A stretch of 64,000 nucleotides of DNA from Ignavibacteriota bacterium (GTDB lineage: Bacteria; Bacteroidota; Ignavibacteria; UBA10030). Made by a program: the position numbers and the translations under genes. Positions 53,575 to 55,489 of this stretch are shown here, one piece after another. The stretch lies in the NCBI GenBank assembly GCA_963701295.1, contig OY969585.1, positions 3,360,001-3,424,000 of the forward strand, written 5' to 3'. Positions within the stretch are counted from its first letter, which is position 1; every line of letters starts with the position of its first letter. The notes below the pieces were generated by a model that saw only the letters and a list, made by a program, of their open reading frames with translations, was not told where the DNA came from and ran no database searches.

Positions 53575-54582
53575 TCAGTTCATATTTAAAGTTATCCTAT
53601 CTACAGCGCTGTGCAATTCTCCACCAGAGAGATGAGAATATACTTGAGTAACGACAATCGATGTGTGCCCAAGAAGCTTCTGCACCTCATAAATCCCTAC
53701 CCCGTTCTGAACAAGCCAAGTTGCGAAGGTGTGACGTAAGCTGTGGAAATGTAATTTCTTATCCAATCCAGAAGCAATTACTGCTTGTTTAAAAAGGTGC
53801 GAGATTCTTGCCTAGTCCAGATTCCATCCTTTCTCACCTACAAATACAAATTCTGATCTATGTGGAAGTGATTCTAATATTCCAAGGGCAACTACGTTCA
53901 GAGGAACGACTCTTTCTTTACCGGTTTTCGTATGAAAGCTTTCTGAATTCATTATATAGATCTGCTTGTGTGAAAAATCGACCTGATCCTACTTGAGATT
54001 TGCTATCTCACCTCGGCGCAGACCTGTATTAACAGCAAACAACACGACATTCTTGAACCATTGTTTAGGAATAACAGTAAGGAGTTTATTCATCTCCTCC
54101 CTGTTTAAATAAATAGGACGTTGATGTGGAATAGTCAGAAGTCGAATAAACTTGAAAGGATTCTTTTCGAGAATCTGCCAACGAACAGCTAATCCGAATA
54201 TTGCTTTGACTGTTCGCAGATCAATATTCACTGAAATCGGTTTTAATCTTTTTAAGCGATCAGCTTTAAAGCATTCGATATCAAGGGGAGTAACTTTGTC
54301 GAGATGTTTGTCGCCAACTGACTTGATGAAGAATCTCATCGCATAAGTTGCCTTATCAGTAGTTCCTTTTGCATGATGAATCTTAGAATATTCAAGAAAC
54401 TTCTCGAAGAATTGTGATAAGGTTAGATGAGGATAGATCGAACTTTGTTGACCTTCAAACTCTTTTAAGAATTTCTTTGCATCAATTTTATTTTTAGTTT
54501 TTGTGGATATGCGCTGCCATTTGCAGGTGCTGTTAAGATAGCAAAGGTAATAGAATCCATTTGTTCGCTTGCTGAGATACAT
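53575..54582 (-). pseudogene. Tyrosine recombinase/integrase with two in-frame TAG stops
   Basis: TGLRRGEI, TKTGK, HSLRH, LLGH and TQVY in one frame; TAG at 53989-53991 and 53812-53814; adjacent to the tRNA-Leu 3' end. Confidence 0.88.
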
Positions 54583-54713
54583 TGCAACCTCCTCAAGAAG
54601 TGTGGATGAGGTGACTGCATAGGAACAAAATAGGAACACTATGGGGTTTTTAAGACAGGAGTTTTTGAAGTAAAAATTTCAATTCGATAACTTCAATTGT
54701 ATTATCAACTTTG

Positions 54714-54877: not shown

Positions 54878-54881
54878 ATTG

Positions 54882-54953
54882 AGGCGCCGGGCGGATTCGA
54901 ACCGTCGCATAAAGGTTTTGCAGACCTCTCCCTTACCACTTGGGTACGGCGCC
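54882..54953 (-). tRNA. tRNA-Cys (GCA)
   Basis: GGCGCCG acceptor, CTGCAAA anticodon loop, GTTCGAA T loop, U73. Confidence 0.95.
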
Positions 54954-55190
54954 ATTCAACAACTTCTTTAGTTCTTCTCTTCCTTTTCCACTCTTCAAAA
55001 ACCTTTCACTTTTTTTTGCTTCATCTTCTGACTGAAATTGCTCTGAGTATATTAACTCAAATGGACGACGTCGTCTTGTGGATTCTGTTTTCCCACTATT
55101 ATGCTCAGCCAACCTCCGGTTAACATCTGAAGAATATCCTGTATAGTATTTTTTATCCTTTATACTTTTCAACACATAAACTTTGTTCAT
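54933..55190 (-). CDS. Small GIY-YIG nuclease family protein overlapping tRNA-Cys
   Basis: VYVLKS, YYTGYS, RLAEHN, RPFELIYSE and ERFLKSGKGR; last codons and TAA lie inside tRNA-Cys. Confidence 0.9.
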   Translation of the reverse strand: MNKVYVLKSIKDKKYYTGYSSDVNRRLAEHNSGKTESTRRRRPFELIYSEQFQSEDEAKKSERFLKSGKGREELKKLLNGAVPKW

Positions 55191-55195
55191 TTTGA

Positions 55196-55243
55196 CTCTC
55201 CCTTACCACACTTGCCCGCCGAAAGCGGGTGCGGTACGGCGCC
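55196..55243 (-). pseudogene. Duplicated 5' half of tRNA-Cys interrupted by a palindrome
   Basis: GGCGCCGTACC[GCACCCGCTTTCGGCGGG]CAAG[TG]TGGTAAGGGAGAG versus 54926-54953. Confidence 0.85.
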
Positions 55244-55328
55244 AGTATTTACATTATCAATGTTAGAACAAAAAACCCACTGCCTGAGAGGTAATGAAGC
55301 AGCGGGGCATATTCAAGCATTATACGCT

Positions 55329-55404: not shown

Positions 55405-55433
55405 ATTCATATTTCATTATCATCATTAATAAC

Positions 55434-55489
55434 GCAAGGAGTTACACTCTTCTCCGCTAAACGCGGATAGGCATCTGAGCTATTCCCGC
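55434..55489 (-). pseudogene. Duplicated, decayed 5' half of tRNA-Gly interrupted by a palindrome
   Basis: GCGGGAATAGCTCAG[ATGCCTATCCGCGTTTAGCGGAGA]AGAGTGTAACTCCTTGC. Confidence 0.8.

Follow-up and report, generated by a model that had tools for sequence, protein, structure and literature searches.

Between the genes for tRNA-Gly(GCC) and tRNA-Cys(GCA) of an Ignavibacteriota bacterium (assembly GCA_963701295.1, contig OY969585.1), a reading frame of 85 codons lies between an intact tRNA-Cys gene and a broken copy of that gene's 5' half, which raises the question of whether this small arrangement is debris, a host gene or a mobile element in its own right. The analyzed window comprises 64,000 nucleotides (positions 3,360,001 to 3,424,000 of the contig), and coordinates given without a contig name refer to it. 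The minus-strand tRNA cluster reads Gly(GCC)-Cys(GCA)-Leu(TAA), and the 85-aa GIY-YIG ORF is located between Gly and Cys. The initial annotation interpreted the arrangement as a selfish, tRNA-targeting unit of about 290 bp, and this interpretation is supported in part, by empty alleles, patchy occurrence and the linkage of the whole family to tRNA genes. Judged from its sequence and that of its relatives, the unit probably represents a very small selfish mobile element, and no published description of its kind was found; when all readings as a selfish element are taken together, such a nature is very probable.

The unit spans 290 bp (54943..55232, minus strand), as defined by the joint from 54942 to 55233 in contigs of the metagenome runs X1 and X2 and by empty alleles in three relatives (G009, G001 and G004). 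Its ends slide by 12 nt, so that 54955-55244 describes it equally well, because of a 12-nt direct repeat that copies tRNA-Cys nt -1 to 11 exactly (55244-55233 versus 54954-54943). The upstream repeat copy (55233..55244, minus strand; repeat search), whose flank is that of the empty alleles, is joined to ancestral sequence and is likely the crossover zone. A second exact repeat, of 14 nt, covers tRNA-Cys nt 15-28 (55209-55196 versus 54939-54926). The upstream copy had been annotated as the first 28 nt of the tRNA; these nucleotides are present, but not as one block, the 12-nt and 14-nt parts being separated by 20 extra nt (an 18-nt insert and 2 nt). The insert (55215..55232, minus strand; alignment and fold) follows tRNA nt 11 and contains a G+C-rich palindrome of 15 nt (55229-55215). 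Together with the flanking D-arm letters it is predicted to fold into one long compound hairpin in single-stranded DNA (z -1.7 for a 61-nt stretch), the 3' arm of which is the copy of tRNA nt 12-28 with the 2 extra nt (55196..55214, minus strand; repeat search and fold). The same copy holds a purine-rich, SD-like stretch corresponding to tRNA nt 21-27 (about 55203-55197) that ends 6 nt before the ATG.

The ORF itself (54933..55190, minus strand; PF01541, with an Slx1/UPF0213-like fold) runs into the intact tRNA-Cys(GCA) gene (54881..54953, minus strand; tRNA call), which is the only tRNA-Cys called in the genome, and its six C-terminal codons and stop are nt 1-21 of the tRNA. The tRNA calls, the ORF, the PF01541 match and the repeats all agree with the annotated picture of a GIY-YIG gene placed between a tRNA-Cys 5' copy and the intact gene, with the latter supplying the last codons and the stop. 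RNase P, which cuts at the 5' end of tRNAs during their maturation, would take the stop codon off the ORF message. As proposed in the initial annotation, the unit may borrow the tRNA promoter; a promoter scan found nothing upstream of the unit on its strand. Just upstream, between tRNA-Gly and the unit, lies a terminator-like hairpin with a U run (55270..55306, minus strand; fold z -3.3), which is a host feature present in the empty alleles of relatives and was not listed by a scan with a loop limit of 8. Much of the order retains this hairpin between tRNA-Gly and tRNA-Cys, and its loop is conserved in part. Inside the 290 bp, neither an integrase nor a terminal inverted repeat was found, and the PF01541 gene is the sole ORF; the annotated absence of these features thus holds for the unit itself, but a broken tyrosine-integrase gene is situated 240 bp beyond tRNA-Cys. 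The unit displays neither the hallmarks of insertion sequences (terminal inverted repeats with a DDE or HUH transposase) nor that of tRNA-integrating islands (their own tyrosine or serine integrase between att sites). An Rfam search returned tRNAs only, an NCBIfam search no family, and an Atlas search GIY-YIG clusters only.

As expected of a mobile element, filled and empty alleles with precise ends occur among close relatives. In G009, G001 and G004, which are 91-92% identical to the source genome (G000) over a linked 2.75-kb marker, the same upstream flank is joined directly to an intact tRNA-Cys, and contigs from runs X1 and X2, originating from two studies, skip exactly the 290 bp between 54942 and 55233, with 12 letters at the joint fitting either side. 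The tRNA-Cys of the filled allele is identical to that of the empty alleles in G009 and G001. A tRNA-Cys match was obtained in 15 of the 16 genus genomes and only G000 carries the ORF at the site (1/15), so the gene is not fixed there, and the empty alleles sought in relatives were clean in all three genomes and both runs. Since G000 resides inside an unresolved five-genome clade (support 100/100) as the sole carrier of the ORF, one gain is the simplest reading. A related unit without an ORF precedes tRNA-Gly(GCC) (55405..55489, minus strand; 85-bp offset) and consists of a copy of nt 1-15, a palindrome (55467-55453) and a spacer. It is also found, with different loops, in G009 and G010, and because it is cleanly missing from G004, precise loss of units probably happens; the empty alleles at tRNA-Cys may be such losses rather than never-filled sites. 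A worn, ORF-less half copy with a different spacer is located at tRNA-Cys in G010 and G006. Nine metagenome proteins, known from protein sequences alone, are 81-88% identical to the query. Like the missing tRNA-Gly unit of G004, these half copies and proteins speak against a single gain.

The 85-aa protein matches PF01541 with 61 bits (cut-off 22.6) and possesses the core of the GIY-YIG superfamily (two Tyr, Gly, Arg, His and Glu) in the form of Y5, Y16, G18, R26, H30 and E62; among 44 proteins, Y16, G18 and H30 are invariant, and Y5, R26 and E62 are found in at least 90%. AlphaFold2 predicted a GIY-YIG fold with confidence (mean pLDDT 85), the tail encoded by the tRNA being disordered. The best sequence matches are the UPF0213 proteins 1ZG2 and 1YWL, the best fold matches are 1ZG2, HIGLE and Slx1, ahead of I-TevI and UvrC, and the protein is nearer to Slx1/UPF0213 than to I-TevI (E 7e-5 versus 0.16). 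It is a single domain without a separate DNA-binding part and so departs from the modularity of homing endonucleases, the homologs searched being 46-149 aa long. A tRNA-encoded tail ends 28 of 43 homologs, and five more read into a second hairpin half (by eye). The borrowed stop codon emphasized in the initial annotation is used here but is optional, as 8 of 15 members with the ORF 5' of the tRNA read into it and 7 of 15 stop before the intact gene.

The source genome harbors four small paralogs detectable by tblastn, all at tRNA genes (Cys, Leu-CAA, Ala-GGC and Ser-CGA) and with hairpin-broken tRNA pieces on the far side; two of the four look decayed. The unit at tRNA-Leu(CAA) (G000:C1 3297422-3297830) has the ORF on the 5' side, two hairpins and no clear start codon. 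The units at tRNA-Ala(GGC) (G000:C1 2356095-2356550) and tRNA-Ser(CGA) (G000:C1 2067090-2067541) have it on the 3' side, the former with an intact ORF and a hairpin in place of the anticodon arm, the latter with a frameshift. Short ORF-less D-arm duplications are furthermore seen just upstream of tRNA-Leu(TAG) and tRNA-Thr(CGT) (G000:C1, near 857645 and 2036513). Matches occur in 126 of the 151 genomes of the order, at 0-20 copies per genome. The association with tRNA genes was quantified in 100 loci, comprising 10 from genome contigs, the best 30 matches (query included) and the next 60 of 150 listed, with 429 weaker matches outside the set. A tRNA is found within 600 bp in 85 of these (1.5% for random G000 stretches), on the strand of the ORF in 85/85, and part of the adjoining tRNA is duplicated in 81 of the 100 loci, compared with 107/1700 in an other-isotype control; duplication of tRNA parts, noted at first for a single locus, is thus shared by most of the homologs examined. 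In the metagenome set (n=80), 64 loci are beside a tRNA, 63 on the same strand and 43 with a duplicated part. The 15 of the 100 loci without a tRNA consist of 10 with a sister inverted-repeat element, two behind tmRNA, two cut by a contig end and one that is featureless.

Two layouts are apparent among 118 non-identical loci with a partner tRNA, the ORF being 5' of the tRNA in 57 (5' layout) and 3' of it in 61 (3' layout). In the 5' layout, the copy begins at tRNA nt 1-3 in 53 of 57 loci and extends to the 3' end in 4; in the 3' layout, it extends to the 3' end in 48 of 61 and begins at nt 1-3 in 7. From this pattern we infer a unit composed, in order, of a tRNA piece, the hairpin, a further tRNA piece and the ORF, and a rule of one crossover on either side of the hairpin, with only intact-tRNA outcomes surviving. 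Inserts of at least 10 nt are present in 99 of the 118 tRNA copies, and for 98 of 154 inserts the fold is better than that of any of 20 shuffled versions. A preference of the hairpins for tRNA loops was considered and dropped, as 91 of 154 inserts outside stems versus 2611 of 5205 junctions is a weak excess. Dead tRNA copies often contain several hairpins that are unrelated to one another, and one type of hairpin turns up at more than one position of the tRNA; Ser, Pro, Val and Leu loci share a double-hairpin type that sits in the D, anticodon or T loop, at a short pyrimidine-purine step, a recurrence that suggests hairpins moving on their own within dead copies.

The branching of the proteins reflects their target tRNA far more strongly than the family of their host. 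The tree has 162 rows (177 minus near-duplicates, 3 of 180 having been dropped for internal stops); the target isotype changes 31 times on it versus 85 when shuffled, and for the 75 order-level rows the target changes 12 times versus 47 and the host family 34 versus 43. The query belongs to a clade of 19 rows from four families of the order, all beside tRNA-Cys(GCA), which is kept intact in either layout (15 members in the 5' layout, 4 in the 3'). The 5'-half duplication proposed in the initial annotation consequently holds for 15 members, but it is only one of two layouts. Support for the clade is 99 with FastTree (79 columns) and 75/78 with IQ-TREE (five outgroups). Its members carry the NCBI label of Bacteroidota MAGs, and tandem units exist at tRNA-Cys in G019, G123 and L132.

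Purifying selection acts on 18 ORFs of the clade, whose synonymous sites are saturated (pN < pS in 153/153 pairs; median pS 0.85, pN 0.23). The hairpin was compared by eye in 21 copies from 16 of 18 loci, collected with a search pattern that favors consensus copies and missed 2 of the 18. Within this list, the 3' stem arm is identical in 18 of 21 hairpins and the 9-nt 5' part in 16 of 21, and the 3-nt loop takes 11 forms. Because the hairpin half is nearly unchanged while the silent sites of the ORF are saturated, it is likely a working cis-site and not debris. The earlier view that the palindrome disables the upstream copy is right in that the copy is hairpin-broken, but 'disabled' understates a strongly constrained sequence. 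On the 3' side of the hairpin, the few letters closing the compound stem are kept in every member, and the SD-like run is often lost. The block of nt 1-11 usually matches the host's own tRNA variant (L042, L131, L132, L136), as would be expected of a crossover zone. Protein and hairpin covary within a target (rho 0.43) but not across targets (rho 0.08, with 40 of 200 permutations at least as high), so the covariation may be plain co-inheritance. A role of the hairpin as a genome-wide REP sequence was dropped, G000 having 8 loose matches versus 1-3 in three Markov simulations, and 1 strict match. The exact clade pattern is found in 4 of 401 class genomes, one copy each, with one genome of another order.

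Several described systems share features with the unit, and the comparisons below refer to the available portions of the papers cited. Ssn nucleases, as exemplified by SsnA with its NTS/SRM hairpins, are single-domain GIY-YIG proteins of <100 aa beside a G+C-rich hairpin. The 85-aa protein has the same catalytic spacing, its catalytic positions aligning with the tested SsnA residues Y6, Y17 and E64, and the IS-like layout suggested by the Ssn authors is a further likeness (PMC11893778). SsnA binds its own hairpin in single-stranded DNA, needs both sequence and structure, and cuts just 5' of it (PMC11893778, Chenal et al. 2025), and Ssn genes are flanked by SRM motifs on one side in 71% and on both in 42% of cases (PMC11893778). 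In contrast, the unit lacks an SRM motif, and its single-copy hairpin lies inside a tRNA fragment and flanks the gene on just one side. The SRM flanking motif was found on one side of 2 of 180 loci and on both sides of none, with a published pattern that also misses the repeats at G000's own Ssn-type gene. Identity between the 85-aa protein, whose best matches are UPF0213 proteins, and this Ssn-type protein, labelled as such by its repeat-rich flanks, is 27%. The available text of the Ssn paper makes no mention of tRNA (PMC11893778). The Ssn-type gene of G000 (L250, G000:C1 about 2938880-2939190) resides amid many hairpin repeats unmatched by the published SRM pattern.

Resemblance to SegB, a free-standing GIY-YIG homing endonuclease of T4/T6 phages, lies in the position at tRNA genes and in tandem repeats; SegB of T6 cuts within tRNA genes, and tandem tRNA-segB repeats arise via microhomology with the tRNA 5' end (PMC13096335). 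SegB, however, is phage-borne and makes double-strand breaks at many sites, whereas the unit is chromosomal and couples an 85-aa Slx1-like domain with a fixed, hairpin-broken tRNA half (PMC13096335). No close phage or plasmid matches to the 85-aa protein were found, those obtained being distant (<=48%), and neither the protein profile nor the hairpin pattern detected a relative in viral contigs that could point to a phage or plasmid vector. Fungal mitochondrial mORFs insert into genes, carry a replacement part and make hybrid genes, and the unit likewise combines a nuclease ORF in an essential gene with a duplicated part that leaves a working gene; mORFs are organellar, have protein-coding targets, are mostly of the LAGLIDADG type and about 1 kb long, in contrast to 290 bp at bacterial tRNA genes (PMC3630166). 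The diverged replacement part of mORFs is also missing here, the intact tRNA being that of the empty alleles, with G104 as the exception. Tyrosine-integrase islands (Islander) similarly split a tRNA gene, restore it and leave a displaced fragment behind, but the 290-bp unit has no recombinase and its displaced fragment carries a conserved hairpin (PMC4383910).

The best sequence and fold matches are UPF0213/prokaryotic Slx1-like minimal GIY-YIG proteins (PDB 1ZG2, 1YWL), for which a housekeeping or repair role is considered likely; the portion available makes no mention of a mobile layout linked to tRNA genes, and prokaryotic Slx1 homologs are predicted to act in DNA repair (PMC1564403). Slx1, among the fold matches, is a structure-specific nuclease. 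The enzymes of IS200/IS605 and REP/RAYT systems are HUH tyrosine transposases. Like the unit, these systems pair a small enzyme gene with hairpins in single-stranded DNA (PMC11893778; PMC3733652), but the enzyme of the unit is a GIY-YIG protein, a term that does not appear in the accessible part of PMC3733652. The initial annotation knew of no system with this layout, and a full-text literature search, with subscription papers and supplements largely outside its reach, likewise returned no description of a tRNA half, a hairpin and a GIY-YIG gene in combination. By its features, the unit appears to work like Ssn/SRM, since it pairs a minimal GIY-YIG protein with a hairpin, and to resemble mORFs and tRNA islands in that the broken gene is made whole again; as it fails a defining test of each known system, it appears to be an undescribed variant of a mobile nuclease that restores its own target.

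The observations suggest a model of how the unit may move. Close relatives either carry the unit or lack it cleanly, a 12-bp repeat marks the joint, and tandem copies exist; purifying selection preserves the GIY-YIG catalytic residues, and the hairpin half has changed far less than the silent sites of the ORF. By analogy with SsnA, the protein would recognize the hairpin of its own unit when the DNA is single-stranded and cut just 5' of it, which would place a nick in the 11-12-nt repeat; recombination between the tRNA-matching end and the tRNA-Cys gene would follow. If one crossover fell within the tRNA-matching letters 5' of the hairpin, the present layout would arise, and if it fell 3' of the hairpin, the mirror layout; only outcomes with an intact tRNA would survive, and with the target rebuilt each time, arrays would be possible. 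Targeting would come largely from the tRNA letters carried by the element. Spread between lineages would occur by incoming DNA, possibly on integrase islands using the same tRNA, and loss by recombination between the repeats. We regard this nicking model as the likeliest single reading, with not quite even chances of being correct. Against it, the Ssn motif is missing and identity to G000's own Ssn-type protein is low, a nick on the 5' side accounts for the 5' layout only, and a match of 11-12 nt is short for RecA. Somewhat more tentative is the proposal that the unit represents a new class, namely an autonomous bacterial element of ~300 bp that would be DNA-addressed and integrase-free, with an 85-aa Slx1-like GIY-YIG protein as its sole enzyme recognizing an element-borne hairpin, a target set by the tRNA fragment around that hairpin, and separate clades for many tRNA genes.

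The main rival is movement of the homing type: a cut by the nuclease at the D arm of the intact tRNA-Cys gene, whether duplex or folded single strand, would be repaired from a filled allele, with the unit copied in the process. The unit would bring the part of the tRNA that was lost, and the hairpin insert would keep the displaced half from being cut again. The target specificity of the clades is in keeping with this, rebuilt targets would explain the arrays, and precedents exist in SegB, with its cuts in tRNA genes and tandem tRNA-segB repeats (PMC13096335), and in the insertion of fungal mORFs with a replacement part (PMC3630166). We nevertheless consider homing less likely, as an intact tRNA-Cys identical to that of empty alleles gives the filled allele no visible immunity, upstream flanks differ between hosts, a blocking insert alone would need no conserved stem with a free loop, and the protein is without a DNA-binding domain and nearer to Slx1/UPF0213 than to I-TevI. 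The dead copies with several unrelated hairpins, and the appearance of one type at different tRNA positions, would fit a passenger role, where hairpins are independent REP-like inserts piling up in spare tRNA copies, the gene is a mobilizer or hitch-hiker, and the whole unit moves only by host recombination or integrase islands. The ORF-less half copies at Gly, Leu and Thr in G000 and at Cys in G010 and G006 point the same way, as does the tandem unit of G019, which follows a 270-300-bp stretch shared (76-87%) with the end of an integrase island in G010. A passenger role is still improbable: the clade hairpin is not dispersed, with one pattern match per genome, at the element (L259 included), the G000 unit sits in native flank with no island end, and the 4.7 kb that precede the G019 unit yielded no integrase.

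Even less probable is that the gene serves the host as an old, vertically inherited nuclease for repair or maintenance of the tRNA locus that is often lost by recombination between the repeats. The purifying selection would be compatible with such a function, as would the predicted role of prokaryotic Slx1 homologs in DNA repair (PMC1564403), the precise loss that seems possible from the missing tRNA-Gly unit in G004, and the non-rejected monophyly of own-family members (p-AU 0.127). The ORF is, however, absent at the site from 14 of 15 genus genomes, copy numbers range from 0 to 20 per genome with two of four G000 paralogs looking decayed, tandem and deleted copies occur, and the clades are tied to tRNA isotype. 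An assembly artefact or chance repeat, finally, has a negligible probability and is refuted for the family. In a search for the filled allele, circles or transcription, none of 8 read runs (of 24 listed) covered the ORF, but independent assemblies, including genomes of four families of the order and metagenome contigs, show this layout with an identically placed hairpin, and 33 of 43 homologous proteins end in residues from tRNA-Cys or a second hairpin half (by eye). The sequences compared confirm that the layout is more than chance and no artefact of assembly, an explanation the initial annotation had considered.

If the nicking model is true, thousands of small genes labelled 'GIY-YIG putative endonuclease' would encode mobilizers and not repair enzymes, and the units would be among the smallest gene-carrying elements in bacteria, able to occupy essential single-copy tRNA genes and leave them functional. 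The origin of some tRNA gene fragments, as a class, would be explained, hairpin-directed cutting of single-stranded DNA would extend beyond Ssn to the Slx1/UPF0213 branch, and many natural nuclease-hairpin pairs would be on offer. The new-class reading, if true, would give a large set of 'putative endonucleases' a function. The locus lends itself well to testing: its ends are precise, its empty alleles are clean, the 19 members of its clade share one target and one hairpin, and the predicted cut site is sharply defined.

Patchiness (4/401) and the foreign-type dead tRNA of G104 suggest horizontal spread between lineages. The dead full-length tRNA-Cys copy of G104 differs from the host's own at several paired positions (by eye), as expected of imported DNA, and a genome from a different order also encodes the protein of locus L137. 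In an AU test, monophyly of the own-family members was not rejected, which lends no support to horizontal transfer, and repeated layout switching was likewise unsupported (p 0.19). Integrase islands may act as carriers. In G010, an island of ~76 kb (L247, L232; G010:C2 283457-359502) with a tyrosine integrase at each end resides in tRNA-Cys, leaving the 5' 41 nt of the gene behind and supplying a new 5' side. The annotated statement that integrases usually duplicate 3' ends of tRNAs, not 5' halves, thus has a counter-case at this very gene, in the nt 1-41 left by the island. Its end sequence also precedes tRNA-Cys in G005, G002, G012 and G019. Empty 5' halves marking the other island end were sought in G005, G012 and G019, with none within 2 kb of tRNA-Gly, and only G002 has a worn fragment. 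The broken tyrosine-integrase gene of the window (53575-54639, minus strand, in two frames; profile search), directly behind tRNA-Leu(TAA), looks like a separate element and is 36% identical to the integrase of G010's tRNA-Cys island. Near tRNA-Cys of G012, a tandem repeat has a period of about 240 bp (L240 2296-3089).

A sister clade (9 rows, support 99*) comprises the same small GIY-YIG proteins away from tRNAs and with terminal inverted repeats of ~13 bp (L074, L080, L082, L094, L099, L100, L109, L111, L121 and L123). Six of the 10 loci are inside integrase-like coding sequence, and L099 and L111 also contain ORF-less versions of the repeat pair. The sister element resembles an insertion sequence whose single gene encodes the GIY-YIG protein; with such single-gene units, small GIY-YIG proteins would travel as the only gene elsewhere too. 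In L038 and L039, related small GIY-YIG genes are found directly behind tmRNA, within long imperfect inverted repeats.
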